NCBI GenBank assembly: GCA_973895155.1
Contig: OZ316895.1
Coordinates: forward strand, 1,440,412-1,504,411
Reading direction: 5' to 3'
Length of the DNA stretch: 64,000 nucleotides
From: Marsupella aquatica
Taxonomy: Eukaryota; Plantae; Marchantiophyta
Part shown: piece by piece, positions 11,063-34,238 of the stretch
How positions within the stretch are numbered: position 1 is the first letter of the stretch
Layout of the letters: each line of letters starts with the position of its first letter
Program-made: the position numbers and the translations under genes
The notes under the pieces: model-generated
What the model was told of the DNA's origin: nothing
What the model saw: only the letters and a program-made list of their open reading frames with translations
The model's database searches: none

Positions 11063-12070
11063 CTGGTAGACACATTATTCAGCATTTGCTAACTTCGAAA
11101 CTAGAAGGGTAACACATTAAACAACAGAGAAACTCACAACATCCTCCTTTGGTCCTTCAGAGTCTGTACTTTGATTCTGAAGTTTGACTGAGTTTTTGTT
11201 TACTAAAAGAATGTGACTGTGTAAGAGTTCCGTTTGGCAGTGGATTGGTTGAAGCACTTCATGCTAGTGTGTTGTCCACAGCTCTTCAACCAGCTTTCGT
11301 CTTCCTTGTCTTTCACCACTTACGATGACATCAATTCAGCTAAGACCATAGAAGGTTCCAAAGCATCTAACTTGTAAAATCGCATTCTGTTACATCAAGG
11401 ACTAAGGTGTTGGGTGCCAAAGGAGACAGCACAACAAACACGCTGAAAAGACTTCAGGACTGGGTTCAACAAGGTAGTGAAGGTGCTTAGAGCCATAGTA
11501 AGTATGCATTCTGTATCTTTCTCTGTTGATGTGAGCTTGTGCATAATGGGAGTTGTAGTTGGCAAGAGTTCCAAATATGAATAGATCCAGAAGTATGTGA
11601 TCATGTACTTGCTCTATAAAGTTCTGACGATATAAGCATTTTCTGTTAGACCAGGCAACTTGGGAGTTGGTAAGTGTCACCTGCATCTGAGGGGCTACAC
11701 CGGGGCATCAGTGGAGGTTCACTTGCACAACACGACAACCAGTGAATTTTCTCTCTGCTGCAACTTGCAAGGTGAGACTTTCGGTCTTTCTAGATGAAAA
11801 AACAGGAGTTTAATATGATTGATATACATGTCCGTCGAGAATATGGGTTTATCACCAAGCTCTTTGTCTTAGGAAACTCATAAACTCAGAATCAAATATG
11901 TACTATGCACGTTTCATGCTATGTGTATACTATGACCTGTAGTTGGAACCAAGACAATGAGTGGGAACTGATTAGTTTAGGTGGTTGCTGTTGGCGAGGC
12001 AAGTCGACCTCCTGCTCACCTTGCTCATCAAAGGACGTGAACAGAGGACATCACAACGAAAGCAACACTT

Positions 12071-12520
12071 ATGGTGAGGACCCGCAACGCTGAACATGTG
12101 CGACTTGCACGCAAGGCAGAGATGTTGCGCCTTGAGTATGTCAGACTTGGGATCCTTCCAGCCCAGTCTGCATGGTACTTTGAGTACCCTGTTGTTTCCA
12201 AGAACAACTACAGCCGGCCTCTACCTGCTTCAGTACCCTTCCCGACATCCTTGGTATTTGTGTCTCTTGTACATGACCCACCACAAATTAGGTGCCAAGG
12301 GTGTGTACACAGTTGCCAATATGACTGTCCTGCCTGTAGGGCTTCTGGCCCAGAATTGGATGACCGTTCTCTTGGATGCCGATTTTTGCACAGAGCACAA
12401 TGTATCATCTGGAACCACTCGCCATCCTGCAGTGTGCCTGGTGATGTCACTTGTCCTGCCCTCCCAGACCCCACCACCGGTGACTTTGGTGTCTACACAT
12501 GTTTGGATCACATGCTCTAG
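12071..12520 (+). CDS. Cargo ORF A of E1: 149-aa Cys/His-rich protein of unknown function
   Basis: Intact ATG-to-stop ORF; 139/149 aa identical (manual count) to 29954-30403; pattern CxxC..CxxC..CxxxHxxxC..CxxH. Confidence 0.6.
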   Translation: MVRTRNAEHVRLARKAEMLRLEYVRLGILPAQSAWYFEYPVVSKNNYSRPLPASVPFPTSLVFVSLVHDPPQIRCQGCVHSCQYDCPACRASGPELDDRSLGCRFLHRAQCIIWNHSPSCSVPGDVTCPALPDPTTGDFGVYTCLDHML

Positions 12521-13290
12521 AGGACCACTTGTCACACCGCATGCACAGACCAGATACCATTGACCTATAGCTTAACACTCTGACTTCAACACAGAGGATA
12601 TTTACTTAAAATTTTGATGTATGAGCAATTTTGGGTCCAGGGTTTAGGGTCAACAGTACATAACTTATATCCTATTATGCCTGCACTAAGCAAAATATCC
12701 TAATTTAAGAGGCTAGCAAACTCGCATAAAAGTCTCTATTGAAAGACTGCTTTCATGACTGCTTTAACCTGGTGAACATTGCAACGTTGAATGAATTAAT
12801 GGGCCATGTGATAATATGCAAAATGATTTATGCCTCACTTATTTGTCTCAGCCACTATCATAACCTATTTAGGATGTATAAATTTCAACCCTTATGACAC
12901 TGCTTCATACCAATCCTCTTCGAAGAATGCCTGTTTTACATGTCACGACTATTGTATGTGATTCAAATGCATGAAATGTTGTTGCAGATCTCCTTTGGTG
13001 AATCATAGCCACAATTAAAATTGAGGTGTTGGTGGAGAAATTGTATTAGGGGATCAGTTTTGTGTGTGGGCTCAACATACCAAAAGTATGTGTGCTCTGC
13101 ATCCTTGTGTGGCCATTCCAATTCATTGCAGTAGCAAATGCCTTTGTACCTTAAATGCTAAATATATTTTACTTTCTGTGCAGTCTGCTAAATTGTAGAG
13201 TCTATCTAAATGCCTTTGTACCTTAAATGCTAAATATATTTTACTTTCTGTGCAGTCTGCTAAATTGTAGAGTCTATCTCATGCGCAGGC

Positions 13291-13949
13291 ATGGCACGGC
13301 CTAAAATTCAAGCCAAAAAGCGTGTGACAGAGGTGAGAAACACAGGTGTACTTGGGGCAGATGCTACTAACTTCTCTGCAAGTCAGATTTTCCAGAAGGC
13401 AGCTCATTGTTGTGCCATTTGTGACGATGGTGGGGGCCTGGTCATTTGTGAGGGCCCTTGCATGAGGCATTTCCACCTCAACCCGGAGTCTGACCTTGCT
13501 GCAGAAAACAACTGTCCAGGGGTGGGCCTCCCGTCAACACACCAGGGAGACTGGATGTGCACTGATTGTTTGGAGAAGCAGGCTAAGTGTGCACAGTGTG
13601 GGAAGTTGATGCTGCAGCAAATGTTAGGAAATGTCCAGACCGTTTTTGTGTGAGATTTTTCTGTTTTGAGTGTTTGCCTGCTCATGCCACAGCTTGCCCA
13701 CTTCATAGGTGCAAGGCATGTGGTGAGCATGATGATGACTACTGGACTGACATAGTCCACTGTGCTAGGTGTCCCACTATGTGGCACTATCATTGCCTGA
13801 AAGATCATCAAGCAGAGGGTTATGCTTGTGACAGAGAAATCTATGATCACTCTGCACATGGTGTTGATCGATGGATATTTTATTGTCATCGCCATGCCAT
13901 TGATCCTACCTCGCGCACTCCTGTGAGAGATCACATATCTTGGCTGTGA
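13291..13949 (+). pseudogene. Cargo ORF B of E1: EDM2-type composite PHD finger protein, frameshifted
   Basis: CAICDDGGGLVICEGPCMRHFH..CPLHRCKAC..CARCPTMWHYHCL..RWIFYCHRHAIDPTSRTPVRDHISWL. A 22-bp deletion relative to E2 at about 13610, bounded by GTTG microhomology, shifts the frame. Confidence 0.85.
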
Positions 13950-14541
13950 AGCTGAACATTGTACATGCACAGTGCACCTGATGTGGATGTACTATTTTTT
14001 GAGATTGCAGAGATTCCAATTTTGAAAAGGAGTTGGGTAGGCGAGTTTATATAGACAACACTTATCTTGTGCTCTGGCGTCAGTGGCTGGGTACATGCCT
14101 ATACAAAATTATCCTTACAAGCCTTCTTGGAAGTATTTAGGCTGAGTGGTCATTTTCATAAACACTTTCATCAGACTGCTAAATTAAAACAGGACTTCTA
14201 AGTTGTAAGCGTATAAATTATCAGGCATGCAATTAATCAAATTGCCCTATAAGTTTGTCATTGAATGTATCCTCCTTTACAACAAAATATGTATGTGCCA
14301 TGACAAGTTGGTTGCACTTCATTTCACCACGGATATGGATTTTGTAGTATATATTCAAACAATGTCCTGCATCCGTGCAGGTGCCTAGTACGTATTGTTC
14401 ACATATCCCTTGTACCTATCAAAATCGGACCTGAGCACCAGTGGGCCAGATCAACTCAAAAAGCAGGAATTTTGTTGTCCTTGTATTGTCAGGTGAACCC
14501 ATTCTTCCAAAATTCACTGTCATCACGTAGAGTGTGTGTAC

Positions 14542-15414
14542 ATGGAGCCTGGTAAACGTAGAAAGTGTGACCACCCAGCAGTGTTTACAGGGGTCAGAGC
14601 GATTTTGGTCCATGGCTAGCATGGGTTGACCAAAGTGCATTGGCCAACTGTACAGAAACGATTCTCTGAGCTCCATGGCACTGTAGTTCAGGACATCACT
14701 CCAGAGACTACACATGTTGTTGCAGGGACATGGCTATCAGTGATAAAGAAGTGGTCATGGTCCTACATGAATTCTGCAATTACTAAGCAAGGCCTAAAAG
14801 TAGTTGAGGCCTCTTGGATCACAGATTCCATAGCACATAAGATTGTACAGGATACTGAGCAATATGAGTTGTGGGAGGATGAAGAAGCTACTGCATCAGC
14901 TTGGGCTGAACAAGAAGTCTGGGAAGCAAAGGCACGGCTTGCTGATCTCCAATATGGACCTGTACTCAACAAAGGACAGAGCTCTACAAGGCTGAAGAGT
15001 ATGTTGGTTGAGGAGACGAAGCAACCAACCCCCATTCTGAAAGGGCTGAGCATGGTATTTGTGGAGGCGGGAATTGGAGAGGTTAAGTGCAAAGTGTACA
15101 AGTCCACAGTGCTTGACCTAGGTGGGACAGTGGAGGAGAATATAACAGAGGACACCACTCATGTCATTACTAAGTCATATCCCAAAGCCTGCCGCAAGTT
15201 TGGGAAGGGAGACATTCGCTTTTATGTCATGTCCCATAATGTGTTTGTGGTTTCATATGCTTGGCTTGTGGAATCAGTAGCAGCTGGGAAGCGTCAAAAC
15301 CCAATGGACTATGATCTTTTTGAGGCCTGGCCACGGAAGGGTCAGGATCCTTACAGAGAGGACTATGAGACAACAAGTGAGGAATGGGTCATTAGCGATT
15401 CTGAATCAGAGTGA
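14542..15414 (+). pseudogene. Cargo ORF C of E1: tandem BRCT protein with a premature stop
   Basis: Two BRCT repeats (HGTVV..TTHVV..VVEASWITDS; LGGTVEE..TTHVI..VVSYAWLVES). ATG 14542 aligns with the E2 start; in-frame TAG at 14617-14619. Confidence 0.85.
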
Positions 15415-15847
15415 GGAGTAGTAGCATCAGTTTGGACACAAGTTTTTTTGTATAAATCAGATCATTGAAATAAATGTGATCTTTGAACTAATGTACCTTG
15501 TTATGGTTGGTGGCAGTTGGGCTTATTTTACTGTTGGCGGATTGTTGTTTCCTGCTGCCTGGGGGTGTCACTGTAAATGTACATGCAGAGGCGGTACATT
15601 TGAGGACAGCGGAGGAGGTGGTGACACCCTCCAACATTTAGGAATTTTGTGTCATTCACTTGACAATAGGTACACTACTTGCGAACCTGTTTTTTTCTTT
15701 TGGGGTGGTTTAGGGTTTGTGAGAATTTAGTACACGTTATGTTAACTCTTTTGGCAGATACAGTCAGGGATATATGGAACACAAATACCACCATTAGGCA
15801 TCCTTGTTCACTGCTGTCCATGACTGCAGAGCTCCCAGCCTGTTACA

Positions 15848-18800
15848 ATGCACCCTGGTCACCACCCTCCCCAGACCCAGCCCAGGGCACAGGCACTGCC
15901 TTTGCATCATCCCACAAGGATATCACGCCATGATAATAAGCTTTGGCAGCGTGAAAGGTTACGAACCAGACTTTCAGGAGCCAGTAGGATGAGATGTCCT
16001 TGTGCAATCTGCCAAGGATCCCGTACCAGGGGTCTGAATGAGGTTTGGCGGCATATCGCGGTTCATGGAAGAGATCCACGACATCGAGTTTGGAATGATC
16101 CTGCAGAGGAAGATTCTTCCGACGAGGAGTGGAGGTTAGAATTGATGCTGCCAATGCTGCAAGACGGGCAAGTGAGGTTCTGCCTGGTGCATTTGAAAAT
16201 GTTGTAGCTGGTCTCTGTGGGTTGTCAGCTCTCCAACGGGATGGTGCTCAGGCAGCACCACGTGACGAAGGAATTCATGTGGAAGAGATGGTGAGAGACA
16301 TCTTCCAAGACTTGGATGCATTTCATGATGGGCTGGACAATGAAGAGGATACGGCTGCAGATGCAAGTGTGCCCCCTGTCGAAGAGCCTCTTGATGAATT
16401 TGAGATAGGGCAGGAAACCCCTGGGCATGATGGGATGTTTGGCTCTCCCCTACAAATACAGGAAGGCAGGAAGTCTTTGTACCCCGGTAGCAAATGTTCT
16501 AAACTGGGATTTGTCATCATGTTCCTGAACATTTGCGGCAACCACAATGTCCCCAACGTTTTGGTTTCTGAGTTGTTGGCATTCTTGCGAACAACTGTGC
16601 TACCAGATGGTAATATTTTGCCCAAGAACATGTACGAGGCAAAAAGATGCATATCTAATCTTGGATTGAACTATGATTCGATCCATGCCTGTCCTGATGG
16701 GCATGTTCTTTTCAGAAAGGAGTATAAAGAATCGTTGACATGCCCTAAGTGTGGGAAGCACAGGTATCGGAACTCAGGAAAGTCTATGGTTCCCGCCAAG
16801 GTACTTCGTCATTTTCCACTCATTCCCAGACTTCAGCGGATGTTCAGAAGCCGTGCCATCTTGGAGATGATGACTTGGGCAACTGACAAGAAAAGTGATG
16901 ATGGGCTACAACGACATGCTGCAGATTCAAGGCAATGGAAACTCATAGATGAGATGTATCCCGAATTTGCTGTTGAGCCGAGGAATGTCAGACTTGGGCT
17001 GTCATTGGATGGGGTAAACCCATTTGGAGACAAGAACAACAAATTTTCGTGCTGGCCTGTAACTATTTTGAATTATAACCTTCCTCCTTGGATGACTACA
17101 AAGCGATTTTTTGTTCTGATGGTCCTACTGATACCAGGGCCAGACAGTGCTGTATCTGCCAACATAGATGTGTTTCTGGCTCCCCTAGTGGAGGAATTGA
17201 GAAAGCTTTGGGAGGAAGGAGTTCTCACATATGATGTCCTACAGAGGCTTGGGAGGTTAAACCCATTCATCCTTAGAGCCATTGTCATTCTGACTATAGC
17301 TGACTACCCAGCCCATGGGATGATATCAGGCCAAACAACAAAAGGATATTGTGCTTGTACTATCTGTGGGCGCAATGTCACCAGTGAGTACTCCAGAGCC
17401 TTGCAGAAAGTGATATACATGGGCCATCGTCGTTTTCTGAAGGCAGATCACCCTTACAGAGAAAGACAGGCACTGATTGCACACTTTGGCAATGAGATTG
17501 AGCAACGTGGACCCCCGGCACGAGTGACCAAAGAGGAGATCAGGCAGTGGGGAGCATTGAGGGATGACTATATCAAACGAGGGGGCAGGGAAGATGGAGT
17601 GAGTGATCCAATAAAGCGATATGGTGTAAAAAGACTGAGCATATTGGACTTGGAGCTCAAGTACTGGAGGGTAAGCCTCTTGGAGTTGATGCTAATTGGG
17701 ATACATGTTTTGGTTCAGAGCATGTGCATTCATTTCGAAGAGAGAGACTAAACTTGAGGCATTTCCTGACGCTTTTGCATTGCAACGATGCAAGAGTTTG
17801 AGCCAAGCAAACATAACATTGATGTTATGCACATTGAAAAGAATATTTGTGAGAGTCTACTCAGATTCTTGTGTGGAGAGAAAGACACTGGTTCAGTGAG
17901 ATTGGATCTTGAACAGAGGGGAATGAAACCCCATCTTTGGTTGAGGCCACATGCCCACAGAGCTGATGTGCTCTTGAAGTACCAAGCACCCTATGTTCTG
18001 ACAGACACAGAGTGGGAACTATTTGTGCAGAGGTTGAGTTCTTTGAAGGTTCCTTCAAACTATGGCAGTGCTTTCAAGAAGCATATCATGACTAGAAAGC
18101 TTGGTAGTATGAAAAGCCATGACTACCATATGTTGATGCAATAGGTGTTGCCTTTATGCCTGAGGGGCCTGTTGCAGAAGCCTGTTCGTACTGTGATCAT
18201 GCGACTCAGTGATGTGTTTCGTCGTATTTGTGTGAAGGTTTGGGATGAAACACACTTCCCACAACTGACAGAAGATGTCGCTCAGGTGCTGTGTGACCTG
18301 GAGATTTATTTTCCTCCCGCATTTTTTGATGTCATGACCCACCTACTTGTCCATGTTGTGGAAGAGCTACACCAATTTGGGCCTGTGAGTGCTCGTTGGT
18401 TGTACCCTTTGGAACGGTACATGAAGCTACTCAAAGGTCACGTGAGAACATATTACAAACCTGAAGCAAGCATGGCTAAAGGTTACATCAAGGATGAGAC
18501 TCTGGGATTTCTGACCGAATACATAGCACAATATGAGCATGTGAAGACCAGGGTGTGGAATTCTGATGAGGAGGAAGGGGTGATAGGTGAAGTACTGGAA
18601 GGGGCTGCAACCACAAAGAACCTGACCATATCTATGAGAGACTTGGCACATGACTTTGTATTGCACAACACTGTGGTGATGGAACCCTGGATACAGTGAG
18701 TGCATACATGTGCTATAATTCAGTTCATGAGCTTAAATGTTGTGTTCGTGTGGTTTTCTCCTTCAGCCTGTTCATGTTTACCCAAGCTAATGCTGTGTGG

Positions 18801-19578
18801 TTGTTCGTTCAGGGAGTATGAGTCATTGAAGGCGGCCCATCCCACTGCAGGAACAACTTTTCCAGGTTTCATGGAGTGGATCAGAGTGGCAATTAGAGAG
18901 CATCACGAGACCCACCCAGACATGGATGCAGATGTTTACCTACTGTCTAATGCCCCTAGCCTGAAAGTGAAGACTTACAAACGGATGAGAGCATATGGGA
19001 ATCACTTCCGAGTGAAGGATGGTGACAGTGCCTACAGGGTGACGAATGACTGCGGGCTCATCACTGTATTTGAGCAACAGAGCCACAATCATGACAGGGC
19101 CTGGATGGAGATGGGATATGTGGGAGAATTAGTTGACATATGGGCTCTGGACTATGGGGCGGTGTCCAGTCCTGTGATTCTTATGAAAGGTTCATGGGTG
19201 CGGCAGGATTGGCTTGGTAACAGGGCTACCATGAAGAGAGACAACGATGGTTTCTTGCTGGCCAATTTCAGAGGGAAATTGCCCGAATGGTCTGAGCCAT
19301 TTGTGTTTCCTAGTCAGGTGGAGCAAGCTTTCTTCCTGGATGTGGAAGACTCCCCAGGTTGGCGTGTAGTGTGTCATAAACAGGCCAGGCAACGTCGGAT
19401 GGAAGGATCAAACCTTGAGTTTCATTTACACTCTCATAGTGCCTTTGATCGTCGGCGTTCAGACCAAGTGCCTGTAGTTCATGATAGCTGGGACTTCATT
19501 CCTGTGACAAGGGTAGATGCATTTGCTGAAGGAGGCGAATTCAGAGATGCAGATGCCAATAGTGTGCCTGTGCCATGA
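15848..19578 (+). pseudogene. TnpD/Tnp2-like CACTA transposase of E1 (3 exons), disrupted
   Basis: Motifs MRCPCAIC, YDSIHACPDG, LRHFPLIPRLQR, RNVRLGLSLDGVNPF, IDVMHIEKN, MKSHDYH, FPPAFFDVMTHL, EPFVFPSQVEQAF. Exons about 15848-17670, 17794-18695, 18813-19578. Lesions: frameshift near 16142, acceptor reading CAA at 17791-17793, TAG at 18142. Confidence 0.93.
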
Positions 19579-19730
19579 GTAATGTGAATTGTTTGCATGG
19601 ACATTAGTGAGGGGAAGGATGTATAAAGTAATTCTGAAGCAACACAGATGTATGGATGGATGCCTGGTGATTCTGGTTGCATTCTGTTATACGGGGTGAC
19701 CATAGATGACATGTTTTTGTGGTCCAGTAG

Positions 19731-22700
19731 GATGGAACAGAGTGACACAGAGATGTGTGAGTATGAAAGGAAAGCTATGGAACAACGAGCATACGTGAAA
19801 GCCAAAATCGCAGAACTGGATCTGGAAAAGGATGTGGCTGAATTGTAAGTGAACGATTCTCAACTACACCCCTCCGCTGAGTTTGTGTGAGATGAATAGT
19901 TCAATGCGGCACTGAAATTGTGACTGTATTCTCATATTGGAATGTCGCAGAGCCACAGCATTTTCAAAGAAACAAAAGGAGTACGCAAGAAGGGTGACCA
20001 ACACTATCTCTGGGCCTGTGCGTCGGAGTGACAGGTTGAGCAAGAAGGTCGTACCTACAATGGCAGAATGTGGAGATGACATTGATGCTGCACAGGTGGG
20101 TGCAGACACTAGACAAGAAGATGCAGATGATGAGTATTTTCCAGAGGAAATGGATGAGGATGGGGGTTATGAAGATGAATACATTGCAGAGCAGCCCCAA
20201 AAGAAACATGTAAGTAGTTTTCCCAACAAGGTTTTGAGTTAAAAACTCTTGTTTAGAGGTTTCATATGTTCAGTACTACACATATGTACCTTGCTTAGTT
20301 CCTGACATTGTAGTTGGTGATGTGATGCAGCGTCCTGCCAGTTTTGTTTTGCCTTCAAAGCCTGTGCATGCACCATACCAGCAGGGGGGGCTGACCTCTG
20401 ATCAAGGTTGGCGAGGTGGTAGTAGTGGTAGATCCCAGGCTGGTGCCCAATACTATGGCAGGGGGCAAGCTCTAGGTTATGCCCGTGGTAGAGGCAGAGC
20501 AGGTCCAAACCCACAATCTCGTGGGTATGGACGTCCACCTCAACCATGGGGATGTGAGTATATATCTATATGCCAGTTCTTTGTGAAGGCATGGCACTCC
20601 TGAATTTCAGACTGCATATCAATTTTTGACATTGTTTGGGATGTATTGGATTCAGACAACATGAAATTTTGTCCACCTGCCATTGCATGCAGATTCTGCC
20701 CAACCTGATTGGGCAAATGCTAGTAATGATCAGTTCCAATGTCCACAAGGACAGACATGGGTTGAACCAGGTTGGGAGGATGGTGGTGGGTCGTGGAATG
20801 AACAAGGTTGGGAAGGTGGTGAAGGTAATTGGCAGGGATATCAAAATTCAGTACCTACAAACGCTGGAAGAGGAGCAGGTAATGTCTGATCTTGTCAGCA
20901 ATGGAAGAACTCATTATATGTGGAGTCCATTCACGTGGGGGGGACTCTGCACATGTATAATGATAGAAAATGTATGTGTGCAGGTTGGACAGTCGAACCA
21001 TCGACTCAAGTATTCACTAATGCCCCTATGCAGATGCAGCACGGAAGGGGGACAGGTATGTCGGTGAATGTTCAGTTGTTTTCCTACAGTTTGTACTTAG
21101 TTTTCAGTACATATGTTTGCACACACATACCTAGAAAGTGACATCATCCGGCCCCTGTACTAGGCTGGACAGGTGGTCCAGGGTCGCAACAATTTTAGAG
21201 TGCAGTCCCTGCACAGGCATCTACAGGTAGAGCTACAAGTATGTATGTTTGAAGAATTTTTCTTGAAGTGAAGCATTGAATGTTGCCGTCATCCATTCTG
21301 CTATATGTAGTTCTCAAGCATGAATGGCATTGTATTTTCCCAGGTGGCTTCAGAACCCCAGGTAGGGTGAATGAAGGGGTGGCCAATACAACGCCCAGTA
21401 CTACCGAGAGCAGTGCACGAGGGGAGGTGACAAAGAAAGGGAACGTAAAGTTGAATGAGAGACAATGGGTGGATGCTGAGTGTCCTCGCAAGAACCGATG
21501 GCATGCTGATTTGAAAGCTGAAGTATTGCGTTGGTTAGATGTGAGTGTTATTAATTTTAAAAAACAGCATCCAAAAGATTGGAAGACTGTATGTGAAAAT
21601 GTTGCTGCCAAATGGAATTATGTGGGCAGTGATGATGGCGTGGACATAGGTTGCCTAGAGAGTACAGCAGGTAAAATTATCAAGCAAGAGAGGTGGAGAA
21701 TGCATAAGGCTTGGAAGGAAGGTGGGGAGAAGCCAGATATGCCTCCACCAGCCAGTTGTGATGATAAAGTGTGGGCAAGGTTAGTAGCTTATTTTGTAAC
21801 AGATGCTTCAAAAAAGAAGAGTTCACAGATGACCGAGGCCAGGTTGAGTGTTCAGAACCCTAATCTGACAGGAAGGACCGGCACTGCACCGACAGCTAAA
21901 CGTTTGGTAAGAATGAATGGCCTAGCTATGTAATTTATGCTACACTATGTACTATTTTTTAGTGTAAACCCATACATGTAAACTTTGTTTTTTAGTGTAC
22001 GTTCCCTGAATATTGATCGATAACTTGTGTTTGCCATGCATGTGCAGAAAGCCCAATTGGGGCAAAGCCCTTCAAAAGAAGAGTTGAGGGCTGAAATTGT
22101 GAACACCCGGGCTCAAGAGGGTGCATCTGAATCCTCCAAGCATGTAAGTTATATGAGTTCTGATTGGTAATTGAATGACCTACGTTGAATTTCAGGTGTA
22201 CACTGTATATAACATTGATTGTGCATATATTGCCCAACATTTCATATGGAGTGATTGAACCTATACCCCTGTGTCATGTAGGGAGGTGGATCTTCACTTA
22301 CAGAGATAAGTGGTCGTTTGAAGGCTGTCGAAACATGTCTTCCAGAGATCAATGAACGTTTGAATTCATTGACTGACTTGTTCCATGTGAACTTCAAGAC
22401 ATTAATGGAAGCTGTTGTGTCGGTGAGAGATAAAATTGATTCCAATTCTGCAGGAGTTCCACCATCACCACTTGAGGTGGCAAAGTCGATGCACTCTTCT
22501 GGCATGCCAACGACATGTAGGCTTGAAGGTAAGGCCTTTACAACTGTGTGGGATATGATTATTAAATGTATAGTTTGAATTGACATTGTTTGTTGAATGT
22601 GTTATTTTCAGTAACATATATTGTGGTTGTTGTGTCCATAGAGAATAAGACAGGTGCTACAGAGAAGAAGTATGAGAACCTGGCAAATACTCGCTGTAAT

Positions 22701-23438: not shown

Positions 23439-23939
23439 CAATGTCATGCCATTATTTGTTTGTAGTGTGAGTCATGTTATGTAGATTTTAGATGTCAAGA
23501 AGCAGTACAAGAATCATGTCCTCTTGGAGATTCATAGTATCATGCATGTGCTTTCAGTTATCTCATCCTACAGTCATCAATTATGAGTTCCTGTTTTGTC
23601 TAAATTACATTGATCACATTGTAAACTATTCCATTGGAATTCAAATGATCTTCATTTTTTAGCAAGATTGTGATTGTGTTTAATTCTTATGAATGTTTTA
23701 TGTAGGATCTGCTTATATGATGCTTTGTTTCATGTGGATGTCATTCATGCTATGTTCATTTCTTGTATTCAATGTGTTATATTTCTAAAGTTAGAACATC
23801 AGGTTTCTATGTATTGTAATGTCGAGTGCTCTCTCTCCTTATGAACTGTCCCTCTGTGTTCATTAGTCATGGTTATAACTTGCATGTGAACCTTATTAGT
23901 TATAAACATGAGTATATAGAGTCCCAAATGGTTCTGTTG

Positions 23940-24270
23940 TGTGACGCGGGCCAGGGTCTCCATTGGTCTCTCCTGTGACACTAAATAGTCACACGCTAGT
24001 CGTTGTTGAATGCGGGTAAGTCATGTATGTGACTTACGATGTGACTCGCTGAAGTCATATTGCAGTCACGTCGAAACAAGGCTAGACTCCACAATAAAGT
24101 CACAGATCAGTCACAAATGGGTATCAAGCAAGTTGCAAAGCCCAGTATCAATAGTGACTTCCATTTTTTGGTCTCAAACTTTTGCAACTCCAAGGGTCAC
24201 AGCGTGGGTCAAGTCACGTTGAGTCACAATGAAGTCACATGAGCCAAAATGAGTCATATATTGCGGTCTC
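23940..24270. repeat. E1 right subterminal repeats, AGTCA(C/T) in both orientations
   Basis: More than a dozen AGTCAC/AGTCAT/GTGACT-type copies directly inside the TIR, with similar motifs at 6100-6290. Confidence 0.75.
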
Positions 24271-27200
24271 AGTTCACCTCGGATTCTTCTAGTGAAAGCT
24301 TGTCTAACAATCAATGAGCACTCTCAGAGAAATATTTTTCCATCTACATCGATACTAAATGGTTTTTCAACTTTTTCATAACCACACAGAATTTACCGTT
24401 AGGTTTACTATCCTCAAGTTTTGTTCCAGGACCAAACTTTCAATAATTTATTATTTTTCTCGAACCTGATATTTTGGCAGTCCCTGGTTGTGAGTATTGA
24501 ACGAGGGCACTTGTTACGTTACCATTGGATGCTCTGGTCAAGGTTTTCAAGCTTAAAATTGTGTTCTTATTGGGGTACCAGAAGGAAAACTATTTTATTG
24601 TGTGTGCCACAGGTAGTGTTACAAAAGAAATGGAATCCCTTCTCTAGTGACAGAAACCAGACCACATACAAAGCACCGCTCAAAACAAACAAATGAATAG
24701 GGAGTTGGAAAACCTGACAATGAATAGGGAACTGAACAAGGGACTGAGCTGAACTGAAAAGGCGCACAGGCGGCGCCGGGCTGTGTATACACTTAACGGG
24801 TGGGCTGTGTATACACTTAACGAGTGATAGGAAAGGATCCGGATTGGAATGCGGAGATTCGAGCTGTGCTGCCCAGAAGGATGGCATAAGCGTTTAGATA
24901 GGCGGTGACAAGTGAGAGTTGATTGGACCCAGGTATCTTGGCTGGGGGTTATCGCGGCTGTAGCAAGATTTAGGTTCACTAGTAGAAATCGGGGTAATTT
25001 AGACCATACCTTATAGGACTAAGCCCACTAAGTCCTTCTTCCATACTTTAAATGACTCGCATCCATTGCCAAGGTTTTGTTAAAGACTATAAAAGACTTT
25101 GAGTGTTTTCCGGTTTAGTTAAAGACTATGAAAAGTAACCTTGCTACTTTGTGAAGGGTGAACACTCTAGGACATCATGGGTTTTGTTCTTGGAATCACT
25201 CTAAAGGTCCACACAAAGACTAGTATAATACAAAGTCTTACAAGGGTTCATGATAAGAGTATACTTAAGAAGGACCGGTGACATGCTACTTTTTGGCCTA
25301 AGTGCTTAAGGACATGCCTTGTATATATCACCAACCTTAACTAACATTGCACCGTAAATATCCATGTAACGGGTACTTTTCATAACTTAGGGTACAACTG
25401 TATTGGAGGGCTTAGGGTGGTTTCTAACCGGAACCGGAACTAATGCATCACTATAACCCTAGCTAGGTACAACTCCCACACCATGATATATTCCGCATTG
25501 CCAACTAGTGTCATTTTAATAGGGTCATGGCCACTAATTGGCACAATGAACAGTCTAGCCCGTGATTGATTTTAGTCTAAATGATGGTGCCTTTTGATCC
25601 AAGATTAATTCCACAAGGGGGGGGGGGGGAGGGTTAGGGTGGGGCACAACTAATTAAGTGGCCATGACTTTGTCACCAAAGGATTTTATTTAAAGTTATC
25701 CTTAACCCGTGTTAGTTTTGTGTCTTTTGTTGCCTAACACTCTGGCGCGGACGTACTTATTATGCTCAACGGGTCACCTCAACGGAAACGAGCTTACATG
25801 ACTGCTTGCACTAAGTCTTGGGTTAGGGTGACTGTAAGTGCTTTGGTCATCATAGCAAATTAGGAATATTGCATTTTAGGACTGGATTTAATGTTGGGCA
25901 ACCTTAATCCTGATTATGGCACAATAGAATGCCACTATGTGCCGACCATGTATGTGCAAATATGACCATTCATTGCCTTCTTAGGGTAATTTGCCAGGCC
26001 ATTTTTGCCTTGTTGGAGTCCACTAGTGTTTACAGAACATATGCTTCTGTGCTCAACGGCTCACCCCAACGGTTAGGGCTTTGTAAATTCCTTCCCCTAA
26101 TTCTGTTTAAGGGTTTACGCTTAACTTTTGGGCCGGACTAAACTACATGGGCAAGGCGCGGGAGAATTCTTCGTGACTTAGTGGTCGAAACAAGGTGGTG
26201 GGGTCTTGGGTGTTCGGGGTTTTGCCAAAGGGTTTTTCATTGACAATGAGCTTTCTCGATCAGTCCAAGCGTCATGCTGCTCTAAGTGTATACACTCTTG
26301 CCATCCCGAGCACCTCACGCGAGCTGTGAGCAGTTGCATCCTCCTGTTGTAAGTGCATTGATCTGCCAAGCGTTCAAATGCAAAGCTGCTAGCGTCTACT
26401 CCCTGTGCTGGTTGAATGTGTAGCGCTGTCTTGTGACGATTGAAGATTGCCCCTTACCTTTTACCGCCATCGCTGAATGCAGGATCGACCCGAATATAGC
26501 ACCTGTGCAGAGGCATTGGGTGAACATAGTGAATGCCGTTTGTGTCTTGTGCAAGGTTGTGGGCCTAACGTTCGTGAGTCGTGAGCTGCAGACTACATGC
26601 GACTCCAAAGGAGGCATTGGGGAGGACACGGTGAAGCAACAAGGAGCGGCGCGGGAGCTTAGAGTGGGCCAACGCTAGCTGAATCCAATCCAGGAGATGT
26701 TGCGCTAAGGTGAGACTCTGAGTTTAGGGTTGCTTCAGTGTCCAAGTAGGTTCTCTTTGCGTCGGCAGCTAGAAGGTAAGCTCGGGGGCTTTACAAAGGG
26801 TTAGTGTTGCGGACTTTCCCTCCTGGACGTTGCGTGTCTTCATTTGCAACTTGTTTGTGGACCTGTGATCCTGAGACTGTCAAAATTGTTGCGGCCGCAC
26901 CGACAACTTGACGACGCATTTTGTGGATGCACCGTTAGTAATCGCGACTACAGCTCTCCAATGATTGCACTTACCATTTTTGACCACCTTGCATGATGTC
27001 CATCCGTGGGCTGGACCCCAGGGAGTAGATTTCGGTACATTTCGGTAGATTTTGTCTATGCCCCCGTTCCTCATTTTGTGCAATGTCCGCCTGGCACTTG
27101 GTTCTTGATCCCTACATTGTCGTCTGCCGCTCGGCTGCTTGCGGAAGGGATCGAACAGATTGGAGGTCACTGTGGACTGACATTCAGGCCTGGGTCAAGC

Positions 27201-29953
27201 AAGGAGGTTAGAGTTGAAGTCGCCTATGCTTGGCCTTCTCTATTTTCTCTGCTTGCCACTACCTCTATTGTTGCTTACCATTTGCAGCTGGTGAAGCTGC
27301 ATGCGGGTTGCATCTATTCTACGGGCGCGCTACGGGTGTTTTATGGATTGTGGACTTTATGTGGTGTGAGAATCGGTAACAACATGAACCGGACTTTTTT
27401 TACAGTCTTGGAATGTGCGTGAGCTGTGAAGGTTGCACTTCAGAGCTGATATTCCTGTCGCCGCCTACTCCCATTGTTGTGTGTTCGTAACGTTGTGCAT
27501 CGTAACGTTGGAACTCGAAGCTGAGCTGCGCACTGTCAACCATCAAGCGCTATTGCGCGTTGTCAACCAAGAGGAGATGCCGCATCCCACATTGAGTTGA
27601 ACATTCAGCTAGGGACCTGAGCTGCGCACTTTCAACCATCGAGCAACGACCAAGCTTGGCAGCGCTCTGGGATTTATTGGCCACATTGACAAAGCGGAAG
27701 ACAGAGGTGAGTGTTCGTGCACCGTTAGAGTAACCGCGAGTACTCTATTACATGCCTTGTTCTCCCGTCCACTGTTTCCTGCGATTTTCTTTCTTCCAGA
27801 AGATAATGGTGATTTCTTCTTCAATCAAACAAAACCCCACCCAACCACCACCCAAGAACGTGGGGTGTGCGCTACTTAATCCTCCTCAAACTGGCCCATT
27901 GTTCATTGAAACCCCATATATTACCCCCCGGCACCAAGGGACCAGTCCCAACCTGTCTTCCGCTTGCCACCCTCTTCACTCTCTCGCACATCTATCTCCC
28001 GATATTTCACGCATAGCCGAGCCCACCGAAAGCTCTCTCCCTACAATCCCTCCCAAATCAACTTTCTCGTTTCCTGCTGCTGCTGATGTATGTTTGTTCT
28101 CCCCTATTTTTGTTTACTGAATTTGGTCTCTCCACACTTCTTGCTTGACATTACTGTTTTGCTCCTCCCTGGATCCAAACATGCCTTGTGCCCCGTGCTC
28201 CGACTTGCATCCTTTTCTTTACTAAGGGGGGGACCACAGCCTCCAGCCATACCTTGGATGTCGGGCCTGGTCAAGACGGTGGTCGGTAGCTCGTTTTTGT
28301 TTTTTTCTCTTTTGTTTCCCAAGCTTCTGGGCAAGGGCATTACCATTCTGGATTCTCCGCGAGGCGCCACTAGCTTTTTTTCTCGGTTGCCCGTGTGCCT
28401 GCCTTCTTAGTTTTGTTTTTTCCTCAAGTGACCAGGCCATCGCTGTATGCAGATTTTTCTTGTTGTATTCATATACAGTATTTTATTGTTCTATCTAGGC
28501 TGTGGCAAGCCAACAAACTGTTGACAACCAACATGGAATAACAACTATGCAGTGCAATGGCAGAGGACACTGTCCAATACAGGAATGACATGGTTATGTT
28601 TTCAATTCCCTGCTTGGATGAGGCATGGTGTTGCTTGTAATCATGTATTTCTTCACACTAGAAAAGCAGTCTGTCAGATGAGGTTGTCGGGATTGTCTGT
28701 GGGTCAGTCATCTTACGGACACCTAGCAACGTCAAATGAATGGCGGAAACGGGCCATGTTGTCATTTTGAAATTTGTCTTTCCTTTTGCCATGCTACCCA
28801 ATCATTTTGTTAGTCCATGAGTCATAGATTCATAGATTCTATGTTTTGTGCTTTGTCTAGAATGCTATGGCGCCCATGCTACAATTTGTGGTTTTTGTCT
28901 AAGCACAAATCCTCTCTGTGCCTGGTCTCTGTGTCCCGTCATTTGGATTGATTGTGCAGACGTTTCCTCTTCTCCCAGTCCTTGTCATCCACCAGCCAAA
29001 GCACATTGGATTGTTTTCAAAGGAGGGCTGTGTAGTTTGGAGGGTTTGATCTATGCAGCGGATTTGAGCAGATTGGCGGTTGTTAGTTTCTTCTTGTAAA
29101 ACCTGTCTGTCTTTTCTGCTTTTGGCCATGCTCCTTCACTTCTTGCTGCAAGCTCAATGTGCTTCAGCTATGGCAATATTCACTTACCCTATCCCAACGG
29201 CACTGCCATGAGCTGTAGGACAGCCAATAGAAGCAGATTGTATCAATTGCATGTAAGTCAGGGTATTTTATGTATTGCGGAACAACTGTCTAAGTATGCT
29301 GCAATGGTCGGTCTTGCGCAGCTGAATGAGCCAATTTCATTTTCCCTGTGCACTTCTATTTCTCAGAGAATTCCCTGGTCATGCTCATTTCCCCCAGAGT
29401 TAGAAAACAAAGAAGAAGAGCTGACTAATTGTAATTCCAATCCATATCCTGATCGGTCAAGGATTGTTCACTACATTGGCCTTGTCATTGGCCGAGGTCA
29501 CCAAATTTTGCTTGGTTTCATTCCTGTGGAGCACTGCTGTGATGGATTTGTCGTAGCATTCTGCAAACTCTCACGGTTTGCTTATGGCCATTATTTGCAA
29601 TTTGCTGCTACTAATATGTCTTCTTCTGAGCAGCATACACCAGAAGTAAGCAATAGTGGAGGTTTAACTGCACATCAACACATCTAGTGAACTACCTCTC
29701 TGCTGCTCACTGGAGGGTGAGACTTTCACTCTTTCTGGATATTGTAGTTTGTAAGCAAGTTGATTAGGAGTGTTTCATGCTATGTTTACACTGTGACCCC
29801 TAGCTGGAACCAATGGAATGACACAGTGAGTGGGAACTGATAATTTAAGGTTGGTTGCTGTTGGTGAGGCAAGTACAGCTCCTGCTCACCTTGCTGATCG
29901 AAGGTGCTTATCAGAGGACGTGAACACACGACATCTCCACAAAAGCAACACTT

Positions 29954-30403
29954 ATGGTGAGGACCCGCAACGCTGAACATGTGCGGCTTGCACGCAAGGC
30001 AGAGATGTTGCGCCTTGAGTATGTCAGACTTGGGATCCTTCCAGCCCAGTCTGCATGGTACTTTGAGTACCCAGTTGTTGCCAGGAACAACTACAGCCGG
30101 CCTGTACCTGCTTCTCCACCCTTCCCAACATCCTTGGTATTTCTGTCTCTTGTACATGACCCGCCACAAATTAGGGCCCAAGGGTGTGTGCACAGTTGCC
30201 AATATGACTGTCCTGCCTGTAGGGCTTCTGGCCTAGAGTTGGATGACCGTTCTCTTGGATGTCGGTTTTTTCACAGAGCACAATGTATCATCTGGAACCA
30301 CTCGCCATCCTGCAGTGTGCCTGGCGATGTCACTTGTCCTGCCCTCCCAGACCCCACCACCGGTCACTTTGGTGTCTACACATGTTTGGATCACACGCTC
30401 TAG
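29954..30403 (+). CDS. Cargo ORF A of E2: 149-aa Cys/His-rich protein
   Basis: Intact paralog of 12071-12520 with the same length and the same position in the cassette. Confidence 0.6.
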   Translation: MVRTRNAEHVRLARKAEMLRLEYVRLGILPAQSAWYFEYPVVARNNYSRPVPASPPFPTSLVFLSLVHDPPQIRAQGCVHSCQYDCPACRASGLELDDRSLGCRFFHRAQCIIWNHSPSCSVPGDVTCPALPDPTTGHFGVYTCLDHTL

Positions 30404-31072
30404 AGGACCACTTGTCACACCGCATGCACAAACCAGAGACCATTGACCTATAACTTAACACTTTGACTTGAACAGAGAGGATATTTACTTAAGATTTTGA
30501 ATTATGAGCAATTTTGGGTCCAGGGTTTAGGGTCAACAGTACATAACTTATCCTATTATGGCTGCACTAAGTACAATATCCTAATTTAAGAGGCTAGCAA
30601 GCTCACTTAAAAGTCTCCTTTCAAAGACTGGAATTAATGGGCCATGTGATAACCTGGAAAAAGTGATTTATGCCTAACTTATTTGTCTCATTCACTATCA
30701 TAGCCTATTTAGGATGTATAAATTACAACCCTGATCACACTGCTTGATACCAATCCTGTTCAAAAAATGCCTGTTTTACATGTCACGACTGTTATATGTG
30801 ATTCAAATGCATTAAATCTTGTTGCAGATCTCCTTTGGTGAATCATAGCCACAAAATTGAGGTGTAGGTGGAGCTATTGTACGAGGGGATCAGTTTTTAG
30901 TGTGGGCTCAACAAACCAAAAAGTATGTCTACTCTGCACATGTGTGTGAACATTTCATTGCAGTAGCAATTGCCACTCTAGTCTATATGCTACACTGTAC
31001 TTTTTGTACACTGCACTAAATTGTATTGTCTGTGCACTCTGCTAAATTGTACTATCTGTCTCATGCGTAGGC

Positions 31073-31753
31073 ATGGCACGCCCTAAAATCTGAGCCAAGA
31101 AGCGGGGGACAGAGGTGAGCAACACAGGTGTAGTTGGGCCAGATGGTAGTAACTTCTCCGCAAGTCAGATTTTCCAGAAGGCAGCTCATTGTTGTGCCAT
31201 TTGTGACGATGGTGGTGACTTAGCCATATGTGAGGGCCCTTGCATGAGGCATTTCCACCTCAACCCGGAGTCTGACCTTGCTGCAGAAAACAACTGTCCA
31301 GGGGTGGGCCTCCCGTCAGCACACCAAGGAGGCTGGATGTGCACTGATTGTTTGGAGAAGCAGGCTAAGTGTGCACAGTGTGGGAAGTTGGGGTCTTATG
31401 AGGGCTCTGTTGATGCTCCACCACTTGTTAGGAAATGCCCTGACAGATATTGTGTGAGGTTCTTTTGTTTTTCATGTTTGCCCGATCTTGCCACAGCTTG
31501 CCCACTTCATAAGTGCAAGGCATGTGGTCAGCACGATGAAGATTTCTGGGTGGACATAGTCCACTGTGTTAGGTGTCCCACCATGTGGCACTTTCATTGT
31601 TTGAAGGAGCGTCAAGCAGAAGGCTATGCTTGTGACAGACACATCTATGATCACTCTGCACATGGTGTTGATCGATGGATCTTCTATTGTCATCGCCATG
31701 CCATAGATCCTACTTTGCACACTCCCATGAGAGATCACATTTCTTGGCTTTGA
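31073..31753 (+). pseudogene. Cargo ORF B of E2: EDM2-type composite PHD finger protein (226 codons) with an early nonsense codon
   Basis: ATG 31073 aligns with the E1 start; TGA at codon 7 (31091-31093, CAA in E1). The remainder is open and carries the full Cys/His array through FYCHRHAIDPTLHTPMRDHISWL. Confidence 0.85.
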
Positions 31754-32353
31754 ACCTGAATAATGTACATGCATAGTGCACCTGATGTGGATACCTTGGA
31801 GATTGCAGACATTCCAATTTTGAGAAGAAGGACCTCTGTAGGAGAGGATGCTTAGGCAACAAGTACCCTAAGTTCATTACTTGTTCCTGGGTACATGCCT
31901 TCAAAATCTCCCCTTAAGCCTTCTAGGAACTTTTTTAACTCTGCAATCATTTTGATCACGACTTACATGACACTGCTTAAATTAAATCAGGACTTCTCAT
32001 TATGAGCATATAAGTTACAAGGCTATTTAATTTGCGAGAATTCCCTTAAAGTGTACCAACATTTTGTATTCTCATTGAATGTCTGCCCCCATACGAAACA
32101 TCTGTATGTGGCATCACAAAACAATTGCACTTGTCACCTTCAATATTGTGAAGGCACATATTCAAACTATGAAGTGCATGCTTGCAGGTGTCTAGTACGT
32201 TTGTCCCAATATTTCTCCCGTTTGGAATCGGAGCAGAGACTCACCAGACGACTGGACTGGACCAAGTTATAAACGCAGCATTTTAAGGGCCCTCCGATTA
32301 TCAGGTGAACGCATTATCTTCCGGTCTGCAGTGATTAGGTGGCCCGTGTGTAC

Positions 32354-33202
32354 ATGGCCTCTAGGAAACGTACAAATGTTGACCACCCGCCTCTGTTGGC
32401 TGGAATCAAAGCCATTTTGATTCCTGGCCACTATGGGTTCACCCAAGTGAGTTGGCCAATCGTACAAAAACGATTCTCAGAGTTCCATGGGACTGAAGTC
32501 AAGGACATCACTCCACAGACTACACATGTTGTTGCGGGGACATGGCTGGATGTGATGAACAAGTGGTCATGGTCCTTCATTGATTTTGCCATTACCAACC
32601 AAGGTCTAAAAGTAGTTGAAGTCTCTTGGCTGACCGATTCTGTTAAACATAGGTGTGTACAGAGTACTGAGCAATATGAGTTGTGGGAGAGTGAGGAGGC
32701 CACTGCAGAGGCTTTGGCTGAAAAGGAAGCCTATGAAGCAGCGGCAGAGAAACCCAACTTTGCTTCTGTCCAATATGGACCTGTTGTCAACATAGGACAC
32801 CATCCTATGCGTGCAGATGCTATATTGAATGAGCATGGCAAGGAGAGAAATACCATTATGAAGGGGTTCAGTGTGGTATTTGCAGAAGAAGGAATTGGGG
32901 AGACTAAGTGCAGACTGTACAAGTCTATAGTCGTTGAGCTAGGTGGGACAGTGGAGGAGAGTCTAACAGAAACCTCCACTCATGTTGTAGGTCTGTCATA
33001 CATGAAAATATGCAGAAAATTCTTTAAGACAACAGTGCGTGATTTTGTCATGAACAACAATCTTTGGGTGCTTTCCCCTGATTGGCTTCTGGAATCAGCA
33101 GCTAGAGGGAAGCGACAGAATGCTTGGGACTTTGATATTTTTGAGGCCTGGCCCTCCAAGATTCAGCGGAGATGTATGCTTAGCAAAGGTGGGAGAGAGT
33201 GA
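32354..33202 (+). CDS. Cargo ORF C of E2: intact tandem BRCT protein (282 aa)
   Basis: Two BRCT repeats with THVV and W(L/I)x(D/E)S signatures; basic N-terminus (SRKR); open from ATG to stop. Confidence 0.85.
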   Translation: MASRKRTNVDHPPLLAGIKAILIPGHYGFTQVSWPIVQKRFSEFHGTEVKDITPQTTHVVAGTWLDVMNKWSWSFIDFAITNQGLKVVEVSWLTDSVKHRCVQSTEQYELWESEEATAEALAEKEAYEAAAEKPNFASVQYGPVVNIGHHPMRADAILNEHGKERNTIMKGFSVVFAEEGIGETKCRLYKSIVVELGGTVEESLTETSTHVVGLSYMKICRKFFKTTVRDFVMNNNLWVLSPDWLLESAARGKRQNAWDFDIFEAWPSKIQRRCMLSKGGRE

Positions 33203-33342
33203 GGAGTAGGAGTCCCTCATATTTTTGTATAAATCACAATTTTGTAATAAATGTGATCCTTGAACTAACTCATCTTGTCATGGTTGGTCGCAGTTGAAGT
33301 GATTGTTGTTTCCTGCTGCGTGGGGTGTGACTGTGAATCTAC

Positions 33343-33912
33343 TTGCTGGGCTCTGTTTGGCTGAAGACTTTGGTGGGTATGCTGCCTCTTCCAGACCGTC
33401 AGGCCCTGTGTAGGGTCCTCCTACGGGTTGCATCGTGCATGGCTACTGCTTGGGCTTACTTGTGTGGATTGGTAACCAGACAGAGTGTAGCTCCATCCGA
33501 GATAATGCCTGCAGACCTTGGATGTGTTGTGAATGCTGTGGTGAATGAGGATGCACAGTCGGAAGAGGACATTTACTTTTCAGCAGATGAGTTAGACAAG
33601 CACGATGCTGTAGGTGGTTCCTTGTTGCCTGATTTGGCAGATGATATAGTTCTTACACATGTCTGGCCGAGGGTTCTTGTGGTGTCTGGCGCACAAGATA
33701 TCTGCAAATATAGACTAATTAGTACCCAGTGGAGGGACTTGGTAGCAACATGTGCACCATGGAGGGCACTGCTGCCACTGCTTGTAGGCACGGATCGAAG
33801 ACCACCATGGCATGAGCAGGGTTTAGACCTTGATGACTTAATGTACATGCCTGAGTACCTCAGGGCTGAGTGGCATCGACAACAAGATTGGTATCCGTAT
33901 TTGATGTGGTAG
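33343..33912 (+). CDS. Cargo ORF D of E2: F-box-like protein
   Basis: SLLPDLADDIVLTHVWPRV..ICKYRLISTQWRDLV..PW matches the F-box pattern LPxLPDD(I/V)..RxVSxxWRxL. The start codon is uncertain. Confidence 0.55.
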   Translation: MLGSVWLKTLVGMLPLPDRQALCRVLLRVASCMATAWAYLCGLVTRQSVAPSEIMPADLGCVVNAVVNEDAQSEEDIYFSADELDKHDAVGGSLLPDLADDIVLTHVWPRVLVVSGAQDICKYRLISTQWRDLVATCAPWRALLPLLVGTDRRPPWHEQGLDLDDLMYMPEYLRAEWHRQQDWYPYLMW

Positions 33913-34238
33913 TAAGATGAGGACATCTCACACCGGTCTCGCACCTGGCACCTGTGTCTATGACTATACATGATTGGACTCTGATATGGTCATGGATGTA
34001 CGTGCAGAGGCAGTACATGTGAGGACAGCGGAGGAGTTGACACCCTCAAACATTTAGGAATTTTGTCTCATTCACTTGAGAATAGGTACATGACTCAGGC
34101 ACCTATATTTTTTGTTTTTTTGTTTTTTTGGAACGTTACGTATTTTGGCAAGTACAATCGGGGGTGAAATCCTTAACAGGAAGTGTATTTTTCACTTGCA
34201 TAATAAAATGACAGGGTGCTGAGTGCGTGTGTATAGTG

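Follow-up and report, generated by a model that had tools for sequence, protein, structure and literature searches.

Why should two large DNA transposons of a liverwort carry, next to their transposase genes, the same series of genes unrelated to transposition enzymes? The question is raised by a 64,000-bp stretch of the Marsupella aquatica genome (contig OZ316895.1, positions 1,440,412 to 1,504,411; hereafter the window, with positions counted from its first base), in which two CACTA/EnSpm elements, E1 and E2, lie one behind the other. Immediately 5' of the transposase gene, each of them has a co-oriented cassette made of an open reading frame (ORF) rich in cysteine and histidine, a triple-PHD gene of the EDM2 type and a double-BRCT gene. 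These are very probably accessory genes that the transposons keep under selection. That they form a portable anti-silencing module of two multi-copy land-plant CACTA families is suggested by analogy with known systems, and we hold the case for it to be evenly balanced.

A scan of all CACT/AGTG end pairs in the window yielded two pairs with target-site duplications (TSDs), which delimit the following elements.

6063-24294, + strand: element E1, CACTA/EnSpm, 18.2 kb; termini 6063-6092 and 24265-24294; TSD AAA
24977-42167, + strand: element E2, CACTA/EnSpm, 17.2 kb; termini 24977-25008 and 42136-42167; TSD GTT

The two elements are co-oriented and 682 bp apart. All four ends begin with CACTAG, one mismatch is found within the first 14 bases of each pair, and 3-bp TSDs flank both elements (AAA/AAA and GTT/GTT). 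The initial annotation, made from the sequence alone, had described two CACTA elements bounded by terminal inverted repeats (TIRs) and TSDs, and these boundaries are confirmed. Downstream of the cassette, each element has a transposase gene and a TnpA-like gene.

15848-19578, + strand: E1 TnpD-type transposase gene, three exons, with a frameshift near 16141 and a TAG at 18142-18144
34239-37939, + strand: E2 TnpD-type transposase gene, with GT-AG introns at 36030-36164 and 37067-37179
21280-21933 and 22722-23438, + strand: exons of the E1 TnpA-like gene, the first with a Transposase_24 match below the cut-off
38822-39448 and 40655-41266, + strand: exons of the E2 TnpA-like gene, 38% and 34% identical to the E1 exons

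Pfam detected Transposase_21, DUF4218 and DUF4216 downstream of the cassette (E 1e-70 and 1e-59), and Transposase_24 in the TnpA-like genes (E 1.5e-4 and 0.013, both below the cut-off). Splicing of its two introns gives the E2 transposase 1150 stop-free codons with C(2)C and H(3-4)H motifs; the window copy of E1 is decayed. The subterminal 7-mers differ, being of the CATGACT/AGTCAC type in E1 and of the AAAGACT type in E2 (counts made without a chance control). With TIRs, a 3-bp TSD, a TnpD-type transposase, a TnpA-like gene and subterminal repeats, E1 and E2 are CACTA/EnSpm elements.

The cargo genes between the 5' arm and the transposase are as follows.

12071-12520, + strand: E1 Cys/His ORF, 149 aa, intact
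13291-13949, + strand: E1 EDM2-type triple-PHD gene, frame shifted by a 22-bp deletion near 13607
14542-15414, + strand: E1 double-BRCT gene, with a TAG at 14617-14619 (codon 26) in the window copy
29954-30403, + strand: E2 Cys/His ORF, 149 aa, intact; protein 93% identical to the E1 protein
31073-31753, + strand: E2 EDM2-type triple-PHD gene, 226 codons, with a TGA at codon 7 (31091-31093), otherwise open
32354-33202, + strand: E2 double-BRCT gene, 282 aa, intact
33379-33912, + strand: ORF of 177 aa present in E2 only; weak F-box-like motif at about 33613-33789

The order Cys/His ORF, PHD gene, BRCT gene and transposase, all on the + strand, is common to both elements, and positions 11911-15586 of E1 match 29772-33346 of E2 at 77%. 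The claim of a shared, ordered and co-oriented cassette holds for these three genes, not for the F-box-like ORF that had been counted with them. The ORFs had also been described as intronless and as keeping their frame. The former applies to the open frames as read and is limited to them; the latter is contradicted by the deletion and TGA in the PHD genes and the TAG in the E1 BRCT gene.

The PHD proteins matched Pfam models of NSD-type PHD fingers at E 1e-5 to 6e-3, under the curated cut-offs. In a database search that scored the 7995 candidates with the most shared words, all 11 of the longer matches, mostly from Solanaceae, carried the EDM2 domain set or name and were 28-32% identical to the cargo, which supports the assignment to the EDM2 type made at the outset. 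When compared with host EDM2, the cargo retains 25 of 29 Cys/His columns that are invariant in the host proteins, and the C-terminal TPxRDH motif is present. Pfam scans of the 220-226-aa cargo proteins and the flanking frames did not find the RFD (PF12047) or methyltransferase-like (PF26055) domains. By sequence, the cargo PHD protein is an EDM2-derived or EDM2-related module and not an EDM2. Stand-alone relatives with intact frames exist among 44 candidates (P0003 and P0004, 83% and 75% identical); a metagenome scan with the PHD alignment gave no relative. In 10 of the 11 host matches, nearly all Solanaceae and hence non-independent, PHD1 is preceded by an acidic stretch with a net charge of -12 to -15.

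The Cys/His ORF gave 10 database matches, eight of which were proteins of 144-200 aa at 28-56% identity; the other two (P0021 and P0024) were discarded as repetitive junk. The pattern C-x-H-x-C-x3-C-x2-C, followed by a later C and H, is found in 9 or 10 of the 10 rows of the family alignment, and the protein is predicted to represent an unnamed zinc-binding family. Pfam, PDB and fold searches gave no match, and the relatives bear no informative name. Foldseek returned nothing at E 0.001 for a model of pLDDT 66 (top Z 4.0), by which a fold is neither named nor excluded. An atlas search gave no usable match, NCBIfam none for the seven proteins examined, and scans of metagenomes and of viral contigs with the alignment found no relative.

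The third gene matched the Pfam BRCT family in two stretches (E 7e-14) joined by a linker of about 55 residues; taken separately, the N-terminal half scored E 5.6e-4, just under the cut-off, and the C-terminal half E 2.8e-9. An AATAAA lies 43 nt (E2) and 54 nt (E1) downstream of the stop codon. Intact stand-alone relatives (P0001 and P0002, one cluster among 733 candidates) are about 60% identical to E1 and E2 alike. In the PDB, BRCA1 and ligase IV shared the best score, a weak E 1e-3, with TdT at 0.18; BRCA1, ligase IV, Rtt107, TdT and microcephalin, all of them weak matches, are candidate donor families. Tandem BRCT domains of the BRCA1/MDC1 type are tightly packed against each other and bind phosphate through a pocket formed by a Ser/Gly and a Lys of the first BRCT. 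In the weak alignment with BRCA1, aromatic residues occupy the pocket Ser and Lys positions in the cargo, and the phosphate-pocket residues do not appear to be kept. An AlphaFold model built from four sequences reached a pLDDT of only 34; in the atlas search, P0001 fell into generic BRCT clusters only, under 0.9. The second BRCT may resemble that of plant DNA polymerase lambda.

A 649-bp segment, specific to E2 and absent from E1, contains the F-box-like ORF. The Pfam match of the ORF stayed at E 0.082 for the whole protein; the isolated motif reached E 0.025, its 15 bits falling short of the cut-off of 20.5. The PDB offered FBXL5 at E 0.95. A frame of this length arose in just 5 of 2000 simulations and is in itself unlikely by chance. 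Deletions of 40 and 43 bases cut the 5' part of the ORF in contigs of three sequencing runs (X3, X2 and X5, introduced below). The cassette had been proposed to include an SCF adaptor; with a sub-threshold match in a single element and 5' deletions in some other copies, this proposal is not upheld, and the ORF is probably an optional add-on.

Is the cargo maintained? Pairwise comparison of E1 with E2 (Nei-Gojobori, bootstrap 95% intervals) gave a dN/dS of 0.22 for the PHD gene (0.12-0.39; 214 codons; P 8e-9), 0.57 for the BRCT gene (0.40-0.81; 268 codons; P 9e-4) and 0.38 for the Cys/His ORF (0.13-1.05; 150 codons; Fisher P 0.04); the first transposase exon gave 0.21. In the five other frames of the Cys/His ORF, dN/dS was 0.95-1.75 in four and 0.28 in one reverse frame. 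The values below 1 for PHD and BRCT, along with the intact stand-alone relatives, support the earlier proposal that the ORFs are selected as transposon genes.

The cassette is not confined to the window. A query with the E2 cassette and transposase found 12 public runs, none recorded as RNA, which carries no information on expression; 10 contain all or part of the query, 4 of them at least half of its words, in 8 studies. Contigs were compared from seven runs (X1, X2, X3, X5, X6, X7 and X9), with X4, X8, X10, X11 and X12 outside the comparison (X8 and X10 having a small share), and variant tables comprised the best 40 rows. On 6 kb of E2 we counted 2415 contigs in X3, 5950 in X2, 272 in X5 and 97 in X6, at identities from 99% to less than 90%; on 6 kb of E1 there were 339 in X1, 411 in X7, 265 in X5 and 18 in X9. 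The last run covers most of E1 at a depth below 10 and was not taken as a separate host. These contigs bear out the expectation that the cassette exists beyond the two window copies. Of the refuting outcomes named in the initial annotation, neither dN/dS near 1 with random truncation nor confinement to the two copies was observed. They also revealed the state of the genes elsewhere. Position 14617, where the E1 BRCT gene has its stop, is C at full depth in all four E1-bearing runs (X1, X7, X5 and X9); the 22 bp deleted from the E1 PHD gene occur in record 27 of X9 as well as in X5 and X7 loose ends; X1 and X5 retain the base lost at 16141 of the E1 transposase; and codon 7 of the E2 PHD gene is open in 14 X2 contigs. 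The PHD and BRCT lesions of each element are absent from the other. The cassette lesions are private to the window copies. Record 19 of X7, 1381 bases long, connects the BRCT gene to the first transposase codons; it is 92-95% identical and has about 126 additional bases between the two genes. The X1 contigs nearest to E1 have depths of 1300-1800 and differ from it at 11 of 2288 bases, and rare variants have depths of 16-57. This pattern fits a young, amplified family; contig depth does not equal copy number, however, and X1 could itself be the source sample. The X6 run, from coded organism D, holds a more distant family, with many contigs over 31108-31710, 33520-33921 and 34927-35127; they cover segments of the PHD gene, the F-box-like ORF and the transposase as separate pieces, in addition to PHD-like loose ends.

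How the cassette came to be in both families was addressed by comparing divergence along the elements. At fourfold-degenerate sites, E1 and E2 differ at 43 of 215 positions in the cassette and at 163 of 247 in the transposase exons (P 5e-24), and the transposases are 59-71% identical. The cassette spacers can be aligned at 74-89%, whereas the scores of the transposase introns and of the terminal 500 bp on either side of the elements are at or near those of shuffled controls. The cassette is far less diverged than the transposases and hence younger than their split, so the E1 and E2 families do not attest its long conservation independently of each other; most simply, it passed from one family to the other after the transposases had diverged. 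Within the cassette, the fourfold differences amount to 8/71 in the Cys/His ORF, 4/38 and 7/30 in the two PHD halves and 24/76 in the BRCT gene (P 0.007). Judged from these sequences, the cassette was likely swapped between families as a module in at least two steps, a likely exchange that the initial annotation missed. Local gene conversion between the neighbouring E1 and E2 was rejected as unlikely, the E1 cassette matching the dominant X1 contigs with the few differences given above; because these contigs match E1 across the cassette, the E1 cassette represents the state of its family. Hybrids between closely spaced CACTA copies have been described for Pack-CACTA elements (PMC13317346), and by analogy hybrid formation is one possible route of cassette transfer.

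The same divergence bears on what the genes do. PHD-bearing RAG2 is the partner of RAG1, a transposase of the same broad clade as those of the EnSpm type. The cassette could likewise be a transposition-helper kit, in which the transposase complex is anchored to a chosen chromatin mark by the PHD protein, for target-site choice or activation, and the BRCT protein recruits end-joining repair. The cargo genes are co-oriented and directly upstream of the transposase, catalytic motifs are common to EnSpm and RAG1/Transib (PMC12730594), the weak PDB matches include the BRCTs of DNA ligase IV (E 1e-3) and TdT (E 0.18), and PolX BRCT domains are reported to bind the end-joining complex. However, BRCA1 equals ligase IV in score, which leaves more than one candidate donor for the BRCT, and near-identical Cys/His and PHD genes stand beside transposases 59-71% identical, TnpA-like exons 34-38% identical and differing subterminal repeats. 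A tight partner should track its transposase, so the mismatch in divergence speaks against the helper kit, which we consider rather improbable. The presence of the cassette beside two dissimilar transposases and sets of subterminal repeats favours a self-contained expression module over a transposase cofactor.

The gradient across the cassette (P 0.007) indicates that the genes moved in separate steps, as would be expected if each had been selected for an independent role, such as self-restraint that dampens transposition or a host benefit, and they had become adjacent only because the position tolerates insertions. The F-box-like ORF in one family only fits this view, and parallel capture at tolerant positions has been discussed for TET/JBP cargo (PMC12730594). 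Against it stand the gene order preserved in both families, PHD and BRCT domains that alike indicate chromatin or DNA-break biology, and the apparent abundance of both families in X1, which is expected if the cargo aids spread. Separate roles are unlikely on this evidence.

To our knowledge, how plant transposons other than VANDAL escape silencing by H3K9me2 and DNA methylation is largely unexplained. The cassette as an anti-silencing module, the reading that we favour, would work as follows. Recombination between co-resident CACTA families would have moved it stepwise, the Cys/5'-PHD part latest. The PHD protein, an EDM2 reader module without effector domains, would attach to element chromatin that carries methylated histones. 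There it would compete with host EDM2 or take its place, so that the transposase gene downstream is better transcribed or its transcripts are processed to full length. The PHD fingers of EDM2 itself bind H3K9me2 chromatin, and EDM2 suppresses proximal polyadenylation in heterochromatic introns (PMC7529245, PMC3632883, PMC7472560, PMC10241880). The Cys/His protein may bind zinc and recognise nucleic acids, thereby making the module specific for its element, as VANC does for VANDAL. The BRCT protein may act as an adaptor that brings proteins together to repair the breaks made by excision or insertion. The fuller proposal, that an EDM2 reader module has become a stand-alone transposon protein and forms, with the zinc family and the BRCT adaptor, an enzyme-free counter-silencing module that spreads between families, is put forward tentatively, as somewhat less probable than its contrary.

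A number of observations weigh against this reading. The PHD gene is disabled in both window copies, by different lesions. The stretch before PHD1 is basic in the cargo proteins (+2 and +6), and a basic in place of an acidic N-terminal stretch may mean that histone binding is changed or lost. EDM2 shifts the silencing of some transposons in either direction, repressing Mu1 and activating COPIA4 (PMC3632883), and by analogy the cargo effect could have either sign. The function is read from homology and analogy, and the role as a host-manipulation kit proposed at the outset is likewise putative. The dN/dS estimates come from a single sequence pair; that of BRCT is just moderately below 1, and the Cys/His interval includes 1. 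Among the contigs listed, the cassette and transposase were never whole on one contig. The relatives P0001-P0004 and P0016-P0025, none of them informatively named, lie on contigs of 0.9-2.9 kb, for which a transposon context is assumed. Low-depth contigs with internal deletions are also present, and such deletion derivatives would be expected if the cargo were passive or camouflage, that is, captured host fragments whose low dN/dS is left from their past in the host or from repeated capture of paralogues. In the same direction point the seven window cargo ORFs, all except three of which are broken or unpaired, the camouflage through captured host sequence that is on record (PMC13317346), and an evident passive capture inside E1, the L18a fragment listed below. 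Passive cargo is nevertheless very unlikely to be the explanation. The E1 and E2 cargo occupies orthologous positions with alignable spacers, so its divergence arose inside the elements. The genes have their own starts and stops at domain borders, common to their relatives; CG depletion is alike in cargo (0.24-0.41) and transposase (0.32-0.36), unlike host regions (0.65-0.71); the Cys/His family has no named relative; and the dN/dS intervals of PHD and BRCT lie below 1, unlike the neutral decay of Pack-CACTA elements, that of Cys/His reaching 1.05.

Several known systems resemble the cassette in part. The giant Plavaka elements of red algae (bioRxiv 10.1101/2025.02.11.637652) are closest: they are 17-19 kb long, belong to the EnSpm superfamily and carry an ordered three-gene cassette, PAG1-3, beside the transposase, with one gene of unassigned function and chromatin-related cargo that moves among transposon families. 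They differ in that PAG2 (adenine methylase and SET) and PAG3 (ParB-like and 2OG oxygenase) are predicted enzymes, while the cargo of E1 and E2 is non-catalytic; E1 and E2 also have the plant layout of TnpD and TnpA-like genes and a land-plant host. The main text of the Plavaka report does not mention PHD, BRCT or F-box, although its supplements may list more domains; conversely, Pfam scans of 42 and 68 frames gave no match to methylase/SET and ParB/2OG-oxygenase genes of the PAG type in our elements. Fungal TET/JBP transposons, EnSpm among them (Kojima 2025, PMC12730594), likewise have a separate gene with a proposed anti-silencing role, passive transfer between lineages and often a kept gene order, but theirs is a single enzyme gene, and PHD, BRCT or F-box do not occur in the main text. 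VANC/KIU of the Arabidopsis VANDAL elements (PMC5735166, PMC13317346) provides a tested anti-silencing model of a plant DNA transposon with a separate accessory gene; in contrast to our elements, VANDAL belongs to the Mutator superfamily, and VANC is a sequence-specific DNA binder of experimentally shown function, with Ulp1 in some cases. No similarity of the cargo to VANC turned up, no direct comparison having been made. EDM2/ELP1 (PMC7529245, PMC3632883, PMC7472560) shares the composite PHD module at 28-32% identity over at most 85% of the cargo protein; the cargo, of about 226 aa, differs by lacking the RFD and methyltransferase-like domains, by its basic N-terminus and by being transposon-encoded. 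Rehavkus (PMC6446971) is a DNA transposon that encodes a PHD finger, though a single one fused into the transposase of a Mutator-related animal element, whereas the triple PHD of E1 and E2 stands alone. The enlarged En/Spm families of Chondrus crispus (PMC6431247; 16-20 kb, 4-5 ORFs) are alike in size and multi-ORF layout. A search of literature listings and the beginnings of abstracts, which did not extend to Repbase or to most subscription journals, turned up no CACTA element with EDM2-type PHD or BRCT genes. PHD, BRCT and F-box were also absent from the main text of an Arabidopsis atlas covering transposon products and from that of a gene-capture review. Accessory cassettes on EnSpm-type elements are thus already known, and this enzyme-free reader/adaptor cargo did not appear in the literature searched. 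The suggestion that such a kit is undescribed is not supported as a general claim, ordered chromatin-enzyme cassettes on giant EnSpm-superfamily elements having been published.

If the proposed function is correct, plants would have a second anti-silencing system beside VANC, mechanistically distinct in that it acts by reader mimicry, which would join the known counter-silencing strategies and supply a compact chromatin-targeting part. In a recently amplified family, a relative of the EDM2 PHD module is encoded as a separate protein and appears to be under selection; EDM2 is a host factor that handles transcripts crossing heterochromatin. The Cys/His protein, from an unnamed family without a fold match, is of interest in its own right. 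The cargo proteins are small (149-290 aa), exist in naturally intact versions and are directly testable.

Outside the cassette, one more block is shared by the elements, and one passenger is present in E1 only.

8582-9041 (E1) and 27566-28002 (E2), no strand assigned: second shared block, 88% identical by blastn and 92% over aligned bases
10720-11085, - strand (antisense): 5'-truncated fragment of ribosomal protein L18a (eL20), E1 only

The frames of the shared block gave no Pfam match. It sits where a GC-richer zone ends in both 5' arms and contains a GTGAGT donor-like site; possibly it is a promoter or leader exon. Splice-donor-like or acceptor-like sites are kept upstream of the cargo ORFs (E1/E2 positions 11773/29717, 13289/31071 and 14500/32305), hinting at alternative splicing out of one common leader. 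In the 5' arms and spacers, Pfam scans of 61 other frames detected no further cargo; three matches, weak and unrelated, were disregarded. The L18a fragment has E values of 1e-48 to 1e-40 with ribosome chains of plants and of 1e-22 or weaker with other chains, and looks like an ordinary passive capture inside E1. Its contig depth in X1 is high, as in the remainder of E1; an X9 contig 86% identical to it continues into other sequence and is maybe a host gene copy. The E1 spacer before the PHD gene holds a 72-bp exact tandem duplication (13136-13279). The left end of E1 (6063) and the right end of E2 (42167) are identical at 13 of 14 bases, and the tandem pair could in principle act as a single 36-kb moving or recombining unit.

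Elsewhere in the window, a plant LINE of the L1 type (43962-50118, + strand) encodes DUF4283, a zinc knuckle, endonuclease, reverse transcriptase and zf-RVT, with frameshifts. Host genes on the + strand, for a ferric-reductase-type oxidoreductase and a GFA-domain protein, occupy 52000-57300 and 61493-62185. A frame of 348 codons at 2614-3660 (+ strand) had weak, coiled-coil-type Pfam matches only. Several tandem repeats, 100-220 bp in length, lie towards the end of the window at 59208-60139 and 63478-63957.

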